NCBI GenBank assembly: GCA_965200245.1
Contig: CBDATS010000008.1
Location: 256,001-320,000 of the forward strand
Source: a bacterium
Lineage (GTDB): Bacteria; UBA8248
Length of the DNA: 64,000 nucleotides
Direction of reading: 5' to 3'
A program made the translations under genes and the position numbers. Positions 16,267-24,373 of the stretch are shown in pieces (positions within the stretch are counted from its first letter, which is position 1; each line of letters begins with the position of its first letter). The notes below the pieces were generated by a model, which was not told the DNA's origin, made no database searches, and worked only from the letters and a program-made list of their open reading frames with translations.

Positions 16267-17499
16267 ATGACAAAGCCCTTGGAAGGTATCCGCGTCCTCG
16301 ACCTGACGCAGTTTCTCTCGGGTCCGCAGGCCACACTTTTCTTGGCGGGCCTGGGAGCCGAGGTCATCCGAATCGACAATCCTGCCACTGGCGACCCGGT
16401 GGCCTATTCCCCTCCCTTCATCGGCGAGAAGGGCGTCTCTTACCATCCCCAAACGGATGAGGACATGGGGATGGCCTATTTGAAGCGTACGCGCCAGAAA
16501 AAGGCGGTCACCCTGAACATCAAGGATCCACGCGGCCTCGAGATGTTCTATGGCCTCGTCGCTCGATCCGACATCTTGGTGGAGAACTTCTCCGTCGGCG
16601 TCACGAAAAGGCTCAAAATCGACTACGAGACGCTTCACGCCCGAAAACCCTCCTTGGTGTATTGTTCCATCACGGGTTATGGACAGACGGGACCTGACTC
16701 CGGCCTGAAGGGTTACGACGCTGTCTCCCAGGCCGCTTCGGGCCTGATGAACCTCACGGGCTTTCCCGACGGTCCGCCCACCAAGGCGGGTTCGGCCCTT
16801 GGCGACAGTATGGGAGGCACGTTCGCCTTCGGCGCCATCATGACTGCGCTCTTTCACCGTGAGCGCACAGGCAAAGGTCAGCATATTGACATTTCGATGA
16901 TCGACTGCATCTTCTCGCTCATCTTCGATGAGCCGATGGATTGTTACGAACGGCTGGGCCTCCCGCCGCGTATCGGCAACCGCATCATGCGGCTCGCGCC
17001 GTTCAATGCCTACGAGACGAAAGACGGCTGGGTAATCGTCGCTTCGGGCACCAACGCGCATTGGCACAACATACTGCACGGCATCGAACGCACCGACCTG
17101 ATAGGCGATGAACGATACGAGGACATGAGCCGGCGCGTGAGCAAGGTAGAGGAAGTCGACGCAATCATCAACGAATGGACTAGGCGGCGCGAGACGAAAG
17201 AGGCAGTCTCCTCACTGCGTGCGCACGACGTTATCTGCGGGCCGGTGAACAACATCGACGACATCCTCGCATGGCCCCATATGCAAGAGCGCGAGATGAT
17301 TGTCGATCTCGAACACCCCACCCTGGGGACGCTCGCCGGTGCGAAAGCCCCCGGTTTTCCCTTCAAATTCAGCGAAATCAAGGGTAGCTACGAGGCCTCC
17401 GCCCCGCTCGTGGGGCAGCACAACGCGGAAATCCTGGGCGGATTGCTCGGCGTGTCCGACGCAGAATTGAAGGGACTGGAAGACGCAGGTGTAATCTAG
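16267..17499 (+). CDS. CaiB/BaiF (family III) CoA-transferase
   Basis: Motifs PLEGIRVLDLT, LGAEVI, ENFS, SITGYGQTGP, GYD and G.GQHIDISM. Confidence 0.93.
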   Translation: MTKPLEGIRVLDLTQFLSGPQATLFLAGLGAEVIRIDNPATGDPVAYSPPFIGEKGVSYHPQTDEDMGMAYLKRTRQKKAVTLNIKDPRGLEMFYGLVARSDILVENFSVGVTKRLKIDYETLHARKPSLVYCSITGYGQTGPDSGLKGYDAVSQAASGLMNLTGFPDGPPTKAGSALGDSMGGTFAFGAIMTALFHRERTGKGQHIDISMIDCIFSLIFDEPMDCYERLGLPPRIGNRIMRLAPFNAYETKDGWVIVASGTNAHWHNILHGIERTDLIGDERYEDMSRRVSKVEEVDAIINEWTRRRETKEAVSSLRAHDVICGPVNNIDDILAWPHMQEREMIVDLEHPTLGTLAGAKAPGFPFKFSEIKGSYEASAPLVGQHNAEILGGLLGVSDAELKGLEDAGVI

Positions 17500-17534
17500 G
17501 CACCCTCCCTGGAGGAATCTGCAGGGTTTCTTCC

Positions 17535-18368
17535 ATGAGACGCGGTATCTTCATGCTGATGATGGTTTGTTTCCTCCTTTTGGGGTGCGCCGGAGAAGTC
17601 AACCTCTCGGGAGGGATCAATCCCAAAACGCTCGATCTGGCCGAAGAGGCGCGACGCACGTTCGATGCCGCCTACGTCATGCTCGAGATAAATGGCGAGT
17701 TCATCGGTGGCAGGATGGATGAGAGGTTCGTCCAGGTAAAACTCGCGGGATTAAAGAAAAAACGCCGCACCGTGATTTTCATTCACGGCTGCTCGGGACT
17801 AGGACGCGGGAACTTGCACTATATGCGGATTCTCGCACGGGCGGGCTACGCTGTCATTGCGCCAGACAGCTTCGCACGCCGCTACCGGCCTGAGACGTGC
17901 GATCCTGCGCGACATCGAGGCATAGAAGGTGCGCCGCACAGGCGCGTGGGGCGGATGCGCCAGAAGGAGATTCATCACGCGGCGTACCGGGTTCGGCATA
18001 TCCGATGGGTGGACAGGCAAAACCTCTTTCTGATGGGGCACAGCCAGGGAGGAACCGCAGCCGCTTCCTATGGGGGAGATGAGTTCGGTGCTCACGTCAT
18101 CTCGGGTTCCACTTGCGGGCGCGGCGTTCGAGTGCCTAAAGCGATTCCTGTTCTTGTGCTGTACTCGAAAGGGGATCCCTGGCGGCGTGGGAGGCCCGCC
18201 GATAGATGCCTGCGCAAGGCGAAAGAACGTGGTGTGAACATGGAGTTTCATCTCTTCGAGGGTCGCGCGCACAACTTCTCACGCAACAGGCGAGCCCGTC
18301 GGCTGATTCTCGATTTTTTGAAGCGATACCGCAGAGCGGAAACGATAATGATACAGAGCGCGCTCTAG
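17535..18368 (+). CDS. Dienelactone hydrolase-family lipoprotein
   Basis: Lipobox LLGC, HGCSG, GHSQGG elbow and HNF. Confidence 0.8.
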   Translation: MRRGIFMLMMVCFLLLGCAGEVNLSGGINPKTLDLAEEARRTFDAAYVMLEINGEFIGGRMDERFVQVKLAGLKKKRRTVIFIHGCSGLGRGNLHYMRILARAGYAVIAPDSFARRYRPETCDPARHRGIEGAPHRRVGRMRQKEIHHAAYRVRHIRWVDRQNLFLMGHSQGGTAAASYGGDEFGAHVISGSTCGRGVRVPKAIPVLVLYSKGDPWRRGRPADRCLRKAKERGVNMEFHLFEGRAHNFSRNRRARRLILDFLKRYRRAETIMIQSAL

Positions 18369-18461
18369 AAAAATTCCGTTTCGCCCGGTCTTCACGACAA
18401 AGCCGCGCCCCTGTGGTAGGATTCGCCATATCGCATACATGAACTCTGGAGGTTCACCCTC

Positions 18462-19448
18462 ATGCGAATCTGTACGATCAGTCTGGGAGGTGAGGCGCGC
18501 ATCGGCGTCTTGTTCGGGGAGAAAATCGCCGATCTCAAGCTGGCCTATGCCTTGTCGCTGGATGAGGTATCCGCTGCCGAGGCTATTGACCGCGTCGAGG
18601 CCGAGGTTCCCGATGATTGTGAGGAGTTTATCGAGGACCTCGAGTTGAATCGCCCCTTGGCGGAGGAAGCTCTTCAAGTGCTCGAAAATCATGGAAACAA
18701 GCAAGAACCGGTTCGCTTCGACGGGATGCAGGTGGTTTATGAACCCGGTGAAGTCGAAATCCTTCCTCCGGTCGTCCCGGGCACGCTGTTCTGCATGGCG
18801 AGGAACTACGTGGCGCATGCCGCCGAGATGGCGCGCACTCAGGTGGACGACTTTAAGGAAGAACTTCCGCTCTATTGTTTCCTGAAACCTGCGACGTGCG
18901 TGAGTGGCCCCTATGACGATGTGCCTGTCTATCCCTCGATGGAAAAACTCGACTATGAACTCGAACTCGGCGTGCTCATCGGGCAGGGTGGCAAGAACAT
19001 TCCCGTGGAGCGCGCCATGGACCATGTGGGCGGCTACACCTTGTTCAACGACATGAGCGATCGTACGACGCTCAATATGGGCAAGTTCATCGACTGGTAT
19101 GCCATGAAGGCTCCCGACGGTTTCGGCCCCATCGGCCCCTATATCCTCTTGCCCGAAGAAGGGCTCGACCCCCACGATTTACGGCTCAAGCTCTGGGTGA
19201 ACGGCGAACTTAGGCAAGACGCGACCACGGGTGATATGGTCTGGCGCATCGTCGAGCAGGTGTCCTATCTATCGAGTATCACAACACTGCGAACGGGCGA
19301 CATCATCGGCACCGGATCGCCTGCAGGCAATGCCGCTTCTTGGGGAGAATATCTCCAGCCAGGGGATCTGATAGAGGGTGAAATCGAAAGCATCGGACGC
19401 CAAGCTTTCCGCATCAGGATCGAGAACCCCGAGTATGTCCCGGGCTAG
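18462..19448 (+). CDS. Fumarylacetoacetate hydrolase-family protein
   Basis: Motifs RNY..H..E, FLKP, DYELEL, NDMSDR, K..DGF.PIGP and GDIIGTGSP. Confidence 0.92.
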   Translation: MRICTISLGGEARIGVLFGEKIADLKLAYALSLDEVSAAEAIDRVEAEVPDDCEEFIEDLELNRPLAEEALQVLENHGNKQEPVRFDGMQVVYEPGEVEILPPVVPGTLFCMARNYVAHAAEMARTQVDDFKEELPLYCFLKPATCVSGPYDDVPVYPSMEKLDYELELGVLIGQGGKNIPVERAMDHVGGYTLFNDMSDRTTLNMGKFIDWYAMKAPDGFGPIGPYILLPEEGLDPHDLRLKLWVNGELRQDATTGDMVWRIVEQVSYLSSITTLRTGDIIGTGSPAGNAASWGEYLQPGDLIEGEIESIGRQAFRIRIENPEYVPG

Positions 19449-19542
19449 ATTTTCCGGTGGTTGATCCCTGACAGTCCGGGGATTAAGATTTTCTCGGTGC
19501 ACGAGGTGCTCCCGAGCCGCTGAAAACCGAAAGGGGAAACCC

Positions 19543-20910
19543 ATGAACTCACCAATGGCCGAAGCCGAATCACTCCGTATGATGGACAAGGAGCACGTCT
19601 GGCATCCGCTCTTGAACCATTTCGGAATGGAGGAGAATCCCCTCGATGTCGTGGTCAAGGCCGAAGGATCAACCATCCAGGACGCTTCCGGCAGGGAATA
19701 CATTGACGCCATGGCCGGGCTTTGGTGCGTGAACATCGGTTACGGGCGCGACGAGGTGGCCCGTGCGGCCTACGAGCAGATGCTCGAGTTGTCCTACTAT
19801 CCGCTCACGCAGGTAAACCCGCCGGCTGCCAGACTCGCCGAGCGTCTTGCCTCCTTGCTGCCCAAGGGAGTCGAGCGTGTCTGGTTCGTTAACTCGGGTT
19901 CCGAGGCGGTGGATACCGCTATCAAGATAGCCCGTGCCTATGGACGTCTGAACGGCGGGAAGCGGTACAAGATCATCGCCCGCCACCAGGGATATCATGG
20001 AGCGACAATTGGCGGGGCGAGCCTCACCGGACAGACGCTCAGGCGCGCGATGTTCGAACCGCTCCTGCCGGGCGTGATTCACGTAAGTGCACCCTATTTC
20101 TACCGCAGCAACGCAGATACTGAAGAAGAACTCGCCTCCCGCTGCGCGGACGAGCTGGATGAGGTCATCCGCTATGAGGATCCCGGGACTGTGGCGGCGT
20201 TCATCGCGGAGCCTGTCATCGGTGGCGGCGGGGTGATTCCGCCTCCCGCGGATTACCTGAAACGCATGCGTGAGGTATGCAGAAACCACGGCGTGTTGTT
20301 CATCGCCGATGAGGTTATCACCGGCTTCGGGCGCACGGGAGTGCTGTTCGCTTCCGACTTGTATGAGATCGAACCGGATATCATGACGATGGCCAAGGGG
20401 CTGAGCAGCGCCTATCTGCCTATCGGGGCGACGGCGACCACGAGCGAAATTTTCGAGGCCCTGAACGCCGAGGGCGATTCAGGCTTCCTGCAAATCAACA
20501 CTTACGGAGGACACCCCGCGGCCTGTGCAGCGTCGCTCAAGAATCTGGAAATCATGATGGATGAGGAGTTGCCCGCGCGAGGTGCCAAGGTGGGCACTTA
20601 TCTCGGCGGGCTATTGAAGAAACTTTCCGACATTCCACTGGTGGGCGACGTGCGGGGGGTGGGCCTCATCTGGGGCGTCGAGTTGGTAGAAGAGAGTGGT
20701 GCGCCGCTTCCCACGGCGGCCACGGCGAAGGTGCTGGCCTACGCGAAAGAAGCGGGTGTCATTTTCGGCAAGAACGCAGGTATCGCAGCGGGCCCCTCGA
20801 ACACCGTAACCATCAGCCCGCCGCTGGTCTTTACAGAAGAAGAAGCCGAGCGCGCTGCCTCCGCTCTCGACGGTGCCCTGCGCCGCGTCCAGGCGGAGAG
20901 TGGCGTGTGA
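19543..20910 (+). CDS. Class-III PLP aminotransferase (omega-amine/taurine:pyruvate type)
   Basis: Motifs D..HVWH, GLWCVNIGYG, SGSEA, YHG, DEVITGFGRTG and MAKGLSS. Confidence 0.9.
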   Translation: MNSPMAEAESLRMMDKEHVWHPLLNHFGMEENPLDVVVKAEGSTIQDASGREYIDAMAGLWCVNIGYGRDEVARAAYEQMLELSYYPLTQVNPPAARLAERLASLLPKGVERVWFVNSGSEAVDTAIKIARAYGRLNGGKRYKIIARHQGYHGATIGGASLTGQTLRRAMFEPLLPGVIHVSAPYFYRSNADTEEELASRCADELDEVIRYEDPGTVAAFIAEPVIGGGGVIPPPADYLKRMREVCRNHGVLFIADEVITGFGRTGVLFASDLYEIEPDIMTMAKGLSSAYLPIGATATTSEIFEALNAEGDSGFLQINTYGGHPAACAASLKNLEIMMDEELPARGAKVGTYLGGLLKKLSDIPLVGDVRGVGLIWGVELVEESGAPLPTAATAKVLAYAKEAGVIFGKNAGIAAGPSNTVTISPPLVFTEEEAERAASALDGALRRVQAESGV

Positions 20911-20962
20911 AACGATAGCTGATAATCCAATCTTATTCATCATCCTGTAGGGAGGTTGTAAT

Positions 20963-21625
20963 ATGTCCAACATCACTATGCTCGACATCGAGGACCTGAA
21001 AAAGACGAAACTCGCTCCTTTCCTCAACAAGGCGCTAAAACACCGAGCGCCCGACCCTGCCTTTCACGCCATGCAGGGCCACAACGAGGATCTGGCGAAG
21101 TCGATGTATCTCGCCTGGGGAACGGTATTCAACACCGGTGTCATCGACCACAGGCTCAAGGAAATCATCCGCGTTCAGCTATCGCGCCGGGCCTTTTGCA
21201 ACTACTGAGGGAACGTACGCTCTGCTTCGGCGAAGCAGGCAGGTTTGACCGAGGAGATGATTGACGAGGGTATCGATAACTGGCGCGAGAGCGATCTTTT
21301 CACCGAAGCTGAGAAACTGGTCTTGGAATACAGCGAACTCATGGATTCGGAACCCGAGAAAATTGATGAGGCCTTCTATGCGAGGCTGCGTGAATGTTAC
21401 TCGGATGAGGAAATCGTGGAACTCGGCTCTTTCATCGGCTTCAACGTGGGCTACCATACCTTTTTCCGGACGCTCGATTTCTATCCCATGTTCTCCCCCG
21501 ACGGCAGGCTCGTGAGTCAGGAGGAATCGCGCCGCATCTACGGCGATTGCCCCGTCTCGCACTTGAGCGGTCCGCTGGCGCGCGCGATCGAAGAGGGTGA
21601 GGCGCAACAGACCAACGGCAGCTAG
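20963..21625 (+). CDS. AhpD/carboxymuconolactone-decarboxylase-like selenoprotein (C-N-Y-U82), 220 aa
   Basis: ORFs 20963..21208 and 21245..21625 are in frame across TGA 21206-21208, reading LKEIIRVQLSRRAFCNY-U-GNVRS (the AhpD CxxC position). The downstream paralogue is colinear across the TGA. Confidence 0.88.
21222..21238 (+). promoter_or_regulatory. Putative bacterial SECIS element
   Basis: CTGCTTC-GGC-GAAGCAG hairpin with a G-led loop 20 nt after the UGA. Confidence 0.7.
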
Positions 21626-21634
21626 GAGGACGCC

Positions 21635-22240
21635 ATGCCGATCATCGAGCCGCTCGAACCCGAAGGAATTGAAGAGAAGGACTGGAAACGTATTATGGAG
21701 CGCACCACCGAGACGCAGGCACCCGATGCGCTCTTCTCGCGCATCATGGCCCATGCACCCGGCTACGCCGGCCCCCTGCACGACGCCATGCACCGTTCCC
21801 ATGTCATGGGCGGGGTGGATCACAAACTCAAGGAGATGATCCGCATTCAACTCGCCAGGACCGCGCAGGATACCTACTTCTCCAACCTGCGCTCCGAGCA
21901 GGCGAAAAAAGAGGGCCTGACGGAGGAGCGCATCGAAGCTGCCTGCGGGAATTTCGAGAACGACGCACAGTTCACCGACGCCGAGAAATGGGCACTCCGG
22001 TTTTCCTGCTGGATGTATCGCGACGCCGCGAGGCTGGACAGGGAATTCTACGATGAGGGCAAAAAACACTTCACAGAGGCCCAGATCATGGAGATCGGCG
22101 CGATGGTGGCACTTCACTACGGCCTTCAGGTTTTCATGCGCACGCTCAAGGCCTATCCCTTACATGACCCCGAGGGCAACCCCGTATCACAGGAACAATC
22201 TGAGCAGATTTACGGAAAAGACGTGCCTACACCCTCATGA
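21635..22240 (+). CDS. AhpD/CMD-like paralogue lacking the redox motif (DTYF in place of CNYU)
   Basis: DHKLKEMIRIQLARTAQDTYFSNLRS aligns with DHRLKEIIRVQLSRRAFCNYUGNVRS. RBS AGGAGG. Confidence 0.85.
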   Translation: MPIIEPLEPEGIEEKDWKRIMERTTETQAPDALFSRIMAHAPGYAGPLHDAMHRSHVMGGVDHKLKEMIRIQLARTAQDTYFSNLRSEQAKKEGLTEERIEAACGNFENDAQFTDAEKWALRFSCWMYRDAARLDREFYDEGKKHFTEAQIMEIGAMVALHYGLQVFMRTLKAYPLHDPEGNPVSQEQSEQIYGKDVPTPS

Positions 22241-22276
22241 GTTTCGCCGTCGGTTCAGAAGCGTCCGCTTTGCAGG

Positions 22277-22690
22277 AACTTGTTCGGGATGTTCTTTTCC
22301 CGGCTGTGAGGCTATCGACCTGTCGCTCGCGGAGTTGGAGACGCTGGTGCGAAATGACAGGCCGGACTGGAAAGGTGTGCTTGAGTGCGTCAAAGGTGTT
22401 TATTTGATCATGGACACGAAAGCGGGAAACGCTATGTCGGCTCTGCCTGTGACGATCAAGGAGTGCAGTCACGGTGGCGTGAATATATTGAGCGCGCCAA
22501 TGGGGGAAACACCGAACTGAACGCGTGGCCCGACGACCAAGGGGGGATGGATTATTGCCGGGTTCATTTTCGGTTCACGCTGTTGGAGTATTGAACTGGT
22601 CGAACGCCCGAGTATCTTTTCCTTGAACGCGAGGAATCCTGGAAACGGATACTCATGACGCGCGGCAGGCAGGGGTTGAATCTCGGTTGA
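22277..22690 (+). pseudogene. GIY-YIG nuclease-family remnant (5'-truncated, frameshifted)
   Basis: KGVYLIMDT in one frame, GKRYVGSA...SRW..Y..GGN in another, then a stop and EREESWKRILMTR. Confidence 0.75.
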
Positions 22691-22966
22691 TGGGTTGTTT
22701 TTCGCGTTGAGTACAGGGCGGCGTGGTGAAAAAATCCTTGAATTACTTCCTCTCCCCATGTTCTAATGAATTTACAATCATCACAAAAGCGAATGCCCAT
22801 GTTTGGAGGCGCTTACGTCAACTCACCATTCGCCTTGAACTGGCAGGAATATGGCCTCTCTTTGCCTTGCCTGTTTCTCTGGGAGTCGTTGCATGCTGTC
22901 TATATGCGCAATCTTTTCGGGAACAAACGAATTTCAACCGGATTTCACAACAATGGGAATGAGATC

Positions 22967-24373
22967 ATGAAAAACCATCAACAGACTTCTCTTCCATGGT
23001 TTGCTATGTGGGGAGTGTTTCTCGCCTTCGTTGCTCTTGCGTTCACGGCGAGCGGGGCGGAGGCGGCAGTGGCCGTCGAGGGCCGGGTCGCAAATGACAA
23101 ATACATATTCAACACCTTCTTTTTGCTGATCTGTGGCGTGCTCATCATGTGGATGTGCGCGGGCTTCACAATGCTCGAGTCGGGTTCGGTACGCACGAAG
23201 AACGCCTCGGTGATTTGCCTGAAGAACATCGGCCTCTACGCCATCGCGGGGATCATGTTCTACATCATCGGCTATAACCTGATGTTTGTGGACGTTGGCG
23301 GCTGGATAGGCTCCGTCAAACTCTTGTTCCGGCCTTCTGGCGATGAGGTCGCCCTCTTGGCCGGGAATGAAAAGGCGGGCACCGCCATAATCGGGACCGA
23401 CTATGCCAGCATATCCTTCTGGTTTTTTCAGATGACTTTCGTGGCGACTACCGCTTCCATCGTCTCTGGTGCCCTCGCCGAGCGTGTGAAGCTGTGGACA
23501 TTCTTTGTTTTCATTGCAATCCTCACCGGCATCATCTATCCGCTGGTGGGTGCCTGGACGTGGGGCGGGGGCTGGCTCACCAAACTGGGTTTCAGCGATT
23601 TCGCTGGTTCCACTATCGTTCACTCGACCGGAGGATGGGCGGCGCTCGCGGGAGTCATCGTGGTAGGCGCGCGTCGCGGGAAGTTTCGCGAGGATGGGAG
23701 CGTCAAGCCCACGCCGCCCTCGAACGTCCCGCTGGTCACTCTCGGGGCCTTCATCCTTTGGTTTGGCTGGTTCGGGTTCAATGGCGGCTCCATGCTGGTG
23801 CTCAAGGGATCGGTCGATGCGTTGACGATGAGCAACGTGCTGGTCAGCACCAACCTCGCAGCTGCGGCAGGTTGCGTCGCCGTCTTGTTCACCGCAAATT
23901 CCATCTTCGGGCGTGTGGACTTACTCGCGGTGCTGAACGGCGCTATCGGCGGCCTCGTCGCCATCACGGCCGGACCGAACATCGTTGAATACCATTGGGC
24001 AGTCATCATAGGTGCCATTGGCGGCTTGGTGTGCGCGTACGGTTTGAAGATATTGGAGAACCTGAAGATAGATGACGTCGTGGGCGCGATTCCCGCGCAC
24101 CTGTTCGCTGGAATCTGGGGGACACTTGCGGTCTGTATCGCAGCGGGCGGTAGCCTCTCCGCGCAAATAATCGGCATTGTGGCGATTGGCTTGTTCGTGT
24201 TCGTGATCTCCTACGTCGTATGGTTGGTTCTGGACAAGACGATGGGCGTGCGGGTGACGGCTTCCGCGGAGGACCATGGGCAGGATTCGGCAGAACTCGG
24301 CATCGAGGCCTATCCCGAATTCGTGCTCATGCCCGATGAGGACGACGCGCACTTGGCAAAAGGAACTCGATAG
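22967..24373 (+). CDS. amtB: Ammonium transporter
   Basis: Motifs AGF.MLE.G, FFQ..F, DFAGSTIVH, WFGFNGGS and DDVVGAIPAH (twin His). Confidence 0.95.
   Translation: MKNHQQTSLPWFAMWGVFLAFVALAFTASGAEAAVAVEGRVANDKYIFNTFFLLICGVLIMWMCAGFTMLESGSVRTKNASVICLKNIGLYAIAGIMFYIIGYNLMFVDVGGWIGSVKLLFRPSGDEVALLAGNEKAGTAIIGTDYASISFWFFQMTFVATTASIVSGALAERVKLWTFFVFIAILTGIIYPLVGAWTWGGGWLTKLGFSDFAGSTIVHSTGGWAALAGVIVVGARRGKFREDGSVKPTPPSNVPLVTLGAFILWFGWFGFNGGSMLVLKGSVDALTMSNVLVSTNLAAAAGCVAVLFTANSIFGRVDLLAVLNGAIGGLVAITAGPNIVEYHWAVIIGAIGGLVCAYGLKILENLKIDDVVGAIPAHLFAGIWGTLAVCIAAGGSLSAQIIGIVAIGLFVFVISYVVWLVLDKTMGVRVTASAEDHGQDSAELGIEAYPEFVLMPDEDDAHLAKGTR

Follow-up and report, generated by a model that had tools for sequence, protein, structure and literature searches.

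A predicted AhpD-like CxxU selenoprotein encoded beside a redox-dead paralogue in a bacterium of the UBA8248 lineage

The in-frame TGA of gene A and its hairpin

The locus described here lies in a window of 64,000 nucleotides (nt) of contig CBDATS010000008.1 (assembly GCA_965200245.1, positions 256,001 to 320,000 of the forward strand), belonging to a bacterium of the GTDB lineage UBA8248, and comprises two adjacent genes related to the AhpD/CMD proteins, here named A and B, with a class-III aminotransferase gene ahead of them (Table 1). Gene A contains an internal TGA within the motif F-C-N-Y-TGA-G-N-V-R, and gene B is a paralogue of A without the active-site Cys or selenocysteine (Sec). The aminotransferase gene and gene B both end in TGA, so that this triplet is an ordinary stop codon here and the internal TGA of gene A needs special decoding.

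Conservation of this codon was examined in two partly overlapping collections with some genomes in common, namely a relatives' set of 61 related genomes, from which 40 loci were fetched, and a species set consisting of the best 80 (L064–L143) of 261 relatives found by a scan of species-representative genomes. An orthologue of gene A (E ≤ 1e-50) was present in 39 of the 61 related genomes, each with exactly one in-frame TGA. The TGA occupies the same codon in 40/40 relatives' loci and codon 82 in 80/80 species loci, the latter within the motif C-[N/R]-Y-TGA-G-N-V-R, and the flanking residues C79, Y81 and N84–A88 are invariant. The species loci carry the taxon labels Nitrospinota, Tectomicrobia, Acidimicrobiia, Rhodospirillales and other Alphaproteobacteria, Gammaproteobacteria, Chloroflexota/Anaerolineales, Chthoniobacterales and SAR324, and at least eight phylum labels occur among the related TGA-bearing loci.

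The genome (3.68 Mb, 15 contigs) also encodes the machinery for Sec incorporation. The tRNA-Sec gene (75.9 bits, cut-off 47) is located on the contig of gene A, about 37 kb past the window end (G000:C8:357344-357436, L001), selA (572.7 bits) adjoins selB (391.9 bits), and selD (338.6 bits) is present as well, the three sel genes all scoring above their cut-offs. The selD gene itself (G000:C8:72779-73741, L018), which lies outside the window, carries one in-frame TGA and thus encodes a Sec-containing SelD. Other CMD/AhpD-like matches with exactly one in-frame TGA were recorded several per genome (G000:C5:15139-15573 on the minus strand, and many in G001–G045), and the lineage seems, by these sequences, to be rich in AhpD-like selenoproteins.

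Close database homologues of A are nearly all fragments, which end at residue 81 or begin just past residue 82, and a few full-length entries have W at the Sec position. One of these, P0003, equals the product of locus L124 except for this W, and the L124 DNA has TGA at the site, which identifies the W as a gene-caller artefact, that is, a mistranslated TGA. Distant full-length homologues (28–38% identity) have Cys at the Sec position; thirteen of them contain the motif C-x-x-C-x3-R-S or close variants of it (e.g. P0145, P0153 and P0165). A further entry, P0147 (376 amino acids, aa), is a tandem double-CMD protein with C-E-Y-W and C-P-E-W, and would be a double selenoprotein if both W residues were mistranslated TGA codons. 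Gene callers cut gene A in two at this codon in the majority of database entries, which could be taken to mean that the TGA is a true stop and that the locus is either a disrupted gene or a pair of short ones (81 and 126 aa). The chance of this is negligible, since all species loci, across phyla, retain the TGA and its hairpin together with the reading frame and the residues on either side, and the genome possesses the full Sec machinery.

Bacterial selenocysteine insertion sequence (SECIS) elements are stem-loops situated just downstream of UGA. In gene A, the hairpin CUGCUUC-GGC-GAAGCAG has a stem that begins 13 nt, and a GGC loop that begins 20 nt, after the TGA. The single-sequence fold of the 71-nt hairpin stretch is no better than that of shuffled sequences (z = −0.32; 78 of 200 shuffles fold equally well), and the support for the hairpin is therefore drawn from related loci. 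Covariation was evaluated over 77 distinct sequences, comprising 539 stem cells, against 500 column shuffles. Paired bases fill 99.4% of the stem cells, the three unpaired ones belonging to L136, L137 and L139. At the second stem pair, 54 sequences have U-A, 21 have C-G and 2 have U-G, and at the seventh, 76 have C-G and 1 has U-A; compensatory changes affect two stem pairs (22 cells), covariation this strong arose in none of the 500 shuffles, and the pairing was lost when the partner was displaced by 1–3 columns. In the U-A to C-G swap, a silent change of a Ser codon (TCT to TCC) is coupled with the replacement of Gln by Arg (CAG to CGG). Moreover, the synonymous positions of GCT-TCG-GCG-AAG within the stem never vary, while the neighbouring codons vary freely, and the GGC loop is invariant in 77/77 sequences. 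An Rfam scan of positions 20900–22300 at E ≤ 10 returned no curated family for the hairpin, the sole match being a chance miRNA. Conserved loop guanosines in bacterial SECIS elements are noted in a figure legend of PMC1088965.

The conserved TGA, the hairpin covariation, the Sec machinery and the Cys of distant homologues together make it nearly certain that gene A is a selenoprotein gene and that its hairpin is a functional bacterial SECIS. The preliminary description of this stretch had proposed exactly this readthrough (C-N-Y-U) with a SECIS-like hairpin 20 nt past the TGA, the point at which the GGC loop starts, and had made its proposal depend on the residue found at the TGA position in homologues. 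The conservation of the codon and the covariation bear the proposal out, and the homologues agree with it, having Cys when distant and W only where TGA was mistranslated.

Table 1. Positions of the aminotransferase gene, genes A and B and associated signals in the window (position 1 is the first nucleotide of the window)
Feature	Position	Strand	Basis and details
Class-III (omega-type) aminotransferase gene, 455 aa	19543..20910	+	Pfam PF00202 (Aminotran_3), 321.5 bits; ATG 19543, stop TGA 20908-20910; ends 52 nt upstream of gene A
Shine-Dalgarno-like GGGAGG of gene A	20950..20955	+	From sequence; 7 nt ahead of the gene A ATG
Gene A, predicted AhpD/CMD-fold selenoprotein, 220 aa with C79-N-Y-U82	20963..21625	+	Translated with TGA = U; ATG 20963, stop TAG 21623-21625
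In-frame TGA, predicted selenocysteine U82	21206..21208	+	TGA at the matching codon of relatives' loci; Cys in distant homologues
Predicted SECIS hairpin, 7-bp stem and GGC loop	21222..21238	+	Covariation, invariant loop, frozen synonymous stem sites
Shine-Dalgarno-like AGGAGG of gene B, overlapping the gene A TAG stop	21624..21629	+	From sequence
Gene B, gene A paralogue without active-site Cys/Sec (D78-T-Y-F81), 201 aa	21635..22240	+	Translation; 35% identity to A; ATG 21635, 9 nt past the gene A stop; own stop TGA 22238-22240

The paralogue B and its association with gene A

Alignment of the two products upheld the earlier suggestion that the downstream gene is a colinear paralogue of A with DTYF in place of CNYU: 69 of 199 residues are identical (E 2e-41), the only interruption is a single 1-residue gap, and D78-T-Y-F81 of B sits opposite C79-N-Y-U82 of A. 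Of 77 orthologues of B, 72 have D-x-Y-F at this site, 4 have D-x-Y-S and 1 has A-P-Y-F; the open frame is intact in 77 loci, and B is, to judge from these sequences, under selection. Scaffold residues common to both proteins are H63, L65-K66-E67, R70, Y81, R86 and S87 (A numbering). The mean column identity is 74% for A versus 57% for B, and the mean pairwise distance is 0.30 versus 0.46, respectively. Matches of B in the ESM Atlas were unnamed or CMD clusters only.

The C-terminal tail of A (Y174 to G194), which forms a short hairpin and a helix in the structural model, is nearly invariant in all A proteins. The preliminary description had regarded an unusual tail as shared by the two proteins. 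This holds for the present locus, in which the A tail YPMFSPDGRLVSQEESRRIYG aligns with the B tail YPLHDPEGNPVSQEQSEQIYG, but not for the pair in general: only 29 of 77 B proteins possess it (those of at least 190 aa, one of which, with 247 aa, probably has a mis-set start), and most B proteins, fusions included, stop soon after ...F-M-R-T-L. The tail is thus a feature of A and not of the pair.

Gene B follows A directly in 36 of the 40 relatives' loci, with an intergenic distance of −10 to 42 nt in 35 of the 36. In two of the four exceptions the contig ends, once inside B and once inside A, and the other two are the distant singles L059 and L060. In the species set, B is directly downstream in 78 of 80 loci; in 77 it lies at −26 to +49 nt, and in L087 a diverged 158-aa CMD protein occupies the B position. 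The contig stops 100 nt past A in L085 and 256 nt past A in L110. A search with B gave a match in 2 of 201 genomes sampled from the class Acidimicrobiia, both with an adjacent pair of B and a TGA-containing A, and in 17 of 201 genomes in the order of G062, 16 of them with adjacent pairs and one with A at a contig end. Altogether, no B without A was found in the 463 genomes searched, a scope that excludes the genomic context of database B-type proteins. The independent occurrence of the paralogues, named beforehand as what would speak against their partnership, was therefore not seen in any of these genomes.

In a quick maximum-likelihood tree of 69 rows, with support from the Shimodaira-Hasegawa-like approximate likelihood ratio test (SH-aLRT), A forms one clade (99) and B another (99), the two being joined at 84, and the CxxC homologues constitute the outgroup (99). 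Many sub-groupings match between the A and B clades, and the distance matrices of the two proteins correlate with r = 0.68, a value reached by none of 2000 permutations. The distant singles L059 (L059:3499-4059, genome G037) and L060 (L060:6013-6582, genome G041) fall outside A+B; they are CxxU homologues with C-S-Y-TGA, 46–47% identical to A, and have the same hairpin as A, but neither a twin nearby nor the C-terminal tail. Their sequences suggest that they may resemble the form that preceded the duplication. The simplest history compatible with these sequences would be a duplication of one CxxU gene, loss of the redox residues in one copy, and subsequent joint inheritance and joint horizontal transfer. 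Two database entries, P0154 (141 aa) and P0064 (181 aa), combine an A-like N-terminal part with a following B-type motif (S-D-R-Y-F and G-D-S-Y-F, respectively), and may be A/B recombinants or assembly chimeras.

The two genes also occur as natural fusions. At the DNA level, locus L122 (SAR324) contains A and B as one open frame of 426 aa, in which codon 82 is the only TGA and some 45 residues link the two parts. Fourteen database proteins of 281–371 aa (P0008, P0009, P0017, P0018, P0020, P0021, P0025, P0028, P0038, P0052, P0063, P0070, P0114 and P0123) consist of the post-TGA part of A, a linker of 40–90 aa and a B domain (G-D-x-Y/H-F), and two of these entries bear Betaproteobacteria names. 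The structural model of the L122 fusion (29-row alignment) reached a mean predicted local distance difference test score (pLDDT) of 88.2 and a predicted template modelling score (pTM) of 0.88, with pLDDT below 50 only at residues 208–235, which belong to the linker, and at the last three residues. Such a pTM would be expected only if the two domains are confidently placed against each other, and the model thus gives a hint at packing between A and B.

CMD-family proteins without CxxC exist, B has a conserved motif of its own, and B-type proteins occur as separate library entries (P0139, P0149 and P0151, seen without genomic context); one might accordingly regard A and B as independent proteins, with B being a non-redox CMD enzyme or a binding protein that oligomerises with itself and is adjacent to A only through tandem duplication and a shared operon. 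We find this unlikely, because the duplication is old and yet the pair was never separated in the genomes searched, because A-B moves between phyla as a unit and is fused into one polypeptide in two lineages, and because P0149 and P0151 nest within the clade of paired B genes.

Transcription and gene neighbourhood

The overlap of the AGGAGG of gene B with the stop codon of gene A fits translational coupling from A to B. Metatranscriptomic contigs from two libraries of one study are identical to the stretch: one (20827-21046) spans the junction of the aminotransferase gene and A, and two others (21018-21858 and 21434-21914) between them cover the TGA and the passage from A into B with zero base differences, so that the TGA site is unchanged in the RNA-library contigs. 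These data are consistent with joint transcription of the aminotransferase gene, A and B. A promoter and terminator scan of positions 19300-22900 found no terminator-like site after gene B; its one terminator-like site, at 19461-19486 ahead of the aminotransferase gene, carries no weight, as 3.2 such sites were expected in shuffled sequences. Between gene B and an ammonium transporter gene (22766..24373), about 520 nt (22241-22765) contain only short overlapping open reading frames (ORFs). The ORFs of positions 22053-22594 had no Pfam family at E ≤ 0.1, and a decayed nuclease gene, considered as a candidate for this interval, was dropped on account of the missing Pfam match. Upstream, on the same strand (16267-19448), are genes for a family-III CoA-transferase, a dienelactone-hydrolase-like protein and a fumarylacetoacetate-hydrolase-family protein.

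The aminotransferase passes the NCBIfam model NF005812 (494, cut-off 488), and its gene adjoins A in 34 of the 40 relatives' loci. The preliminary description had raised the possibility that A and B act on the product of this enzyme, and a dedicated pathway of this kind could be read from the gene's position a short distance upstream on the same strand, its frequency among the relatives, the RNA-library contig that bridges the junction and, weakly, the terminator-like site ahead of it. The fumarylacetoacetate-hydrolase-family gene is kept with the aminotransferase gene in Nitrospinota-like loci, which suggests a small catabolic cluster there. In the species set, however, the aminotransferase gene adjoins A in only 24 of 80 loci, all of a Nitrospinota/Tectomicrobia-like clade; none lies next to A in the other 56 (41 of these with 7 kb of upstream sequence, the rest with less), and in some relatives the two genes stand 0.8-2.5 kb apart, with other DNA between them. 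Loci labelled Rhodospirillaceae (7-13) instead have SDR, HMGL-like and cupin genes upstream and an MFS transporter gene downstream, and others have peroxiredoxin, amine oxidase and Zn-alcohol dehydrogenase genes. The functional link thus fails outside one clade, and a shared pathway is improbable; the aminotransferase gene is better described as a lineage-specific neighbour, which shares the location, and perhaps the transcript, of A-B in the Nitrospinota-like clade alone.

A peroxiredoxin gene is located directly upstream of A in 5 of the 80 species loci (L094, L097, L112, L118 and L121), and flavin amine oxidase and Zn-alcohol dehydrogenase genes lie downstream in 8, all within one A subclade; in the peroxiredoxin loci the cluster occupies about 0.1-0.7 kb upstream of A and 0.1-4 kb downstream of B. 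The arrangement peroxiredoxin-A-B-amine oxidase-Zn-alcohol dehydrogenase was found under Acidimicrobiia, Gammaproteobacteria and Chthoniobacterales labels, and by its sequence distribution looks like a horizontally moved block. No peroxiredoxin gene stands beside A-B within the window. Beyond A-B, no neighbour was universal in the loci compared, and the neighbour sets are lineage-specific, which leaves A-B alone as the conserved unit.

Known relatives and a proposed mode of action

Both proteins score above the cut-off of the Pfam CMD family (PF02627, cut-off 23), A with 29.5 bits and B, barely, with 23.8 bits. The AlphaFold2 model of A, built from a 44-sequence alignment, is all-helical (pLDDT 92.5, pTM 0.87), and in a Foldseek search it gave 29 PDB matches at E ≤ 0.001, of which all those listed were AhpD-like or CMD-family structures. 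The assignment of A to the CxxU selenoproteins of AhpD/CMD fold, made at the outset, is thereby confirmed at the level of both the family and the predicted fold. The best fold matches were the 'peroxidase-related / AhpD core' structures 2prr, 2oyo, 3c1l and 6k40 (about 190 aa; TMq 0.62–0.68 over 180–195 columns), which are Cys proteins with 15–22% identity to A. No NCBIfam model exceeded its cut-off for A (NF053654, 68.5 versus 310; TIGR01926, 38.8 versus 81.8; NF041047, 22.3 versus 110; NF041537, 14.9 versus 510). NF053654 ('YciW-related (seleno)protein'), NF041047 and NF041537 represent CMD-fold proteins with Sec variants, and the first of them is the best model for both A and B (31.8 bits for B), although far below its cut-off.

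Classical AhpD proteins, represented by those of M. tuberculosis (1knc, 1gu9) and P. aeruginosa PA0269 (2ijc, 7xw1), share the all-helical fold with A. The match is better for PA0269 (TMq 0.55–0.56, with 2ijc and 2o4d among the Foldseek matches) and poor for the M. tuberculosis structures (TMq 0.35–0.36). In the profile alignment, the Glu-x11-Cys-x-x-Cys of classical AhpD, continued in PA0269 (2ijc) as E-x11-C-x-x-C-x3-H, aligns with E67-x11-C79-x-x-U82-x3-R86 of A. The full signature Glu-x11-Cys-x-x-Cys-x3-His is accordingly absent from both proteins: A has the Glu and the Cys, with Sec for the second Cys and Arg for the His four residues on, and B has Asp and Phe at the two Cys positions and Arg for the His. 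A is also about 75 residues longer than classical AhpD, with its conserved C-terminal tail. Known AhpD forms are homo-oligomers; A, unlike these, is accompanied by a dead paralogue.

The AhpD-like CxxU selenoproteins (COG2128) are described in passages of PMC1088965 and PMC2398784 from Sargasso Sea and Global Ocean Sampling (GOS) metagenomes, the latter giving 299 sequences in the GOS data, a number that ranks them among the commonest marine bacterial selenoproteins, and the family is listed under TIGR01926 in a 2026 review (PMC13188914). It has been known since 2005. Gene A resembles it, as characterized in these passages, in the CxxU motif, the AhpD/CMD relationship and the marine bacterial distribution, and JGI names some A matches 'alkylhydroperoxidase family enzyme'; the TIGR01926 score of A, in contrast, remains below the cut-off. 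Matched by description and not by the sequences of those papers, A is most likely a member or a close subfamily of this family. The same passages of the three papers mention neither a conserved Sec-less twin nor fusions, and in the literature searched, a scope outside which lie subscription journals and selenoproteome supplements, no description of the A-B pairing was found. The new element appears to be the obligate, co-evolving and sometimes fused redox-dead twin, a pairing that appears to be undescribed.

On this basis, a mode of action may be proposed for the pair. A would be translated through UGA-82 as selenocysteine under the direction of the hairpin 13 nt downstream, and would retain an AhpD-type centre, E67-x11-C79-x-x-U82, with Arg86 replacing the AhpD His. 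In AhpD, the second Cys of CxxC is the nucleophile; by analogy, the selenol of U82 would attack the oxidised substrate, and C79 would resolve the adduct as a selenenylsulfide, to be reduced in turn by what is presumably a separate reductant. B, which has Asp and Phe for Cys and Sec, is incapable of selenol chemistry. It would join A in an AhpD-fold heterodimer, or in a larger assembly of these heterodimers, each containing a single selenium centre, and would have a structural or docking role. As for the substrate, the leading guess is a peroxiredoxin or another disulfide or hydroperoxide target, given the AhpD-type centre of A and the peroxiredoxin neighbour, while the kinship with Bmp8 keeps a small-molecule role such as dehalogenation among the candidates.

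On account of this kinship, A-B might be read as a Bmp8-type enzyme that uses selenium for reductive dehalogenation or for another small-molecule reduction, in which the selenol would take the halogen as in thyroid deiodinase and B would shape the pocket. The tetrabromopyrrole debrominase Bmp8 (6ohi, 6ohj) resembles A in length (195 aa) and carries CxxC at the corresponding position; among solved structures it comes nearest in sequence to the A profile (6ohi, E 7.9e-13, 51.7 bits) and is a fold match as well (TMq 0.65), and some sequencing runs holding this DNA are labelled sponge metagenome. Bmp8 removes bromine by oxidising its own cysteines to a disulfide, as stated in a passage of PMC5577590. 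The identity to A is nevertheless only 21–22%, Bmp8 has Cys instead of Sec and stands among other genes, AhpD proteins of the PA0269 type score almost as high (E 6.8e-12, likewise among the best hits of the profile), no halogenase or bmp-like neighbour was present in the 15 loci scanned for neighbours (a scan that did not extend to the window as a whole), and the contexts of the module are very varied, so that a dedicated dehalogenase seems quite unlikely. We know of no paired dead paralogue of Bmp8. There is likewise a small chance that A-B is a one-selenium enzyme in which one half of a symmetric CxxU homodimer turned non-catalytic and a composite pocket arose for a small molecule and not for a peroxiredoxin. 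If so, the non-catalytic half would halve the costly UGA-recoding events per active complex, and the composite pocket would let the selenol carry out, for example, reductive dehalogenation as in Bmp8 and thyroid deiodinase.

We consider it likely, from comparison of the sequences, that A and B form a self-contained two-gene module that derives from one ancient duplication of a CxxU AhpD-like gene and operates most likely as an asymmetric pair. The obligate co-occurrence, the co-divergence and the natural A-linker-B fusions are what argues for a hetero-oligomer with one selenium centre. Several points weigh against this interpretation. On its own, the hairpin is energetically not unusual. The RNA contigs come from a single study, DNA carry-over is possible, and a contig that covers two genes is no proof of one transcript. 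Shared descent inflates mirrored trees and the correlation between the distance matrices, and the tree is a quick one with SH-aLRT values only, in which the A+B node has only 84%. The distant singles L059 and L060 contain TGA and have no B nearby, which indicates that the AhpD-like fold needs no twin. The packing of the two halves in the AlphaFold model of L122 may copy solved AhpD-like homodimers. The peroxiredoxin loci, all in one A subclade, amount to about one event, and the Arg in place of the His of the AhpD relay means that the chemistry may differ from that of AhpD.

With regard to annotation, most database entries split A at the TGA or read the TGA as Trp, and NCBIfam covers neither protein. 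For experimental work, the pairing offers an expression handle, since A and B should be co-expressed. A widespread selenoprotein subfamily that is always paired with, and sometimes fused to, a dead twin provides a testable architecture, the asymmetric heterodimer with one selenium centre, and would add a case from bacteria in which a selenoenzyme is served by a pseudoenzyme subunit.

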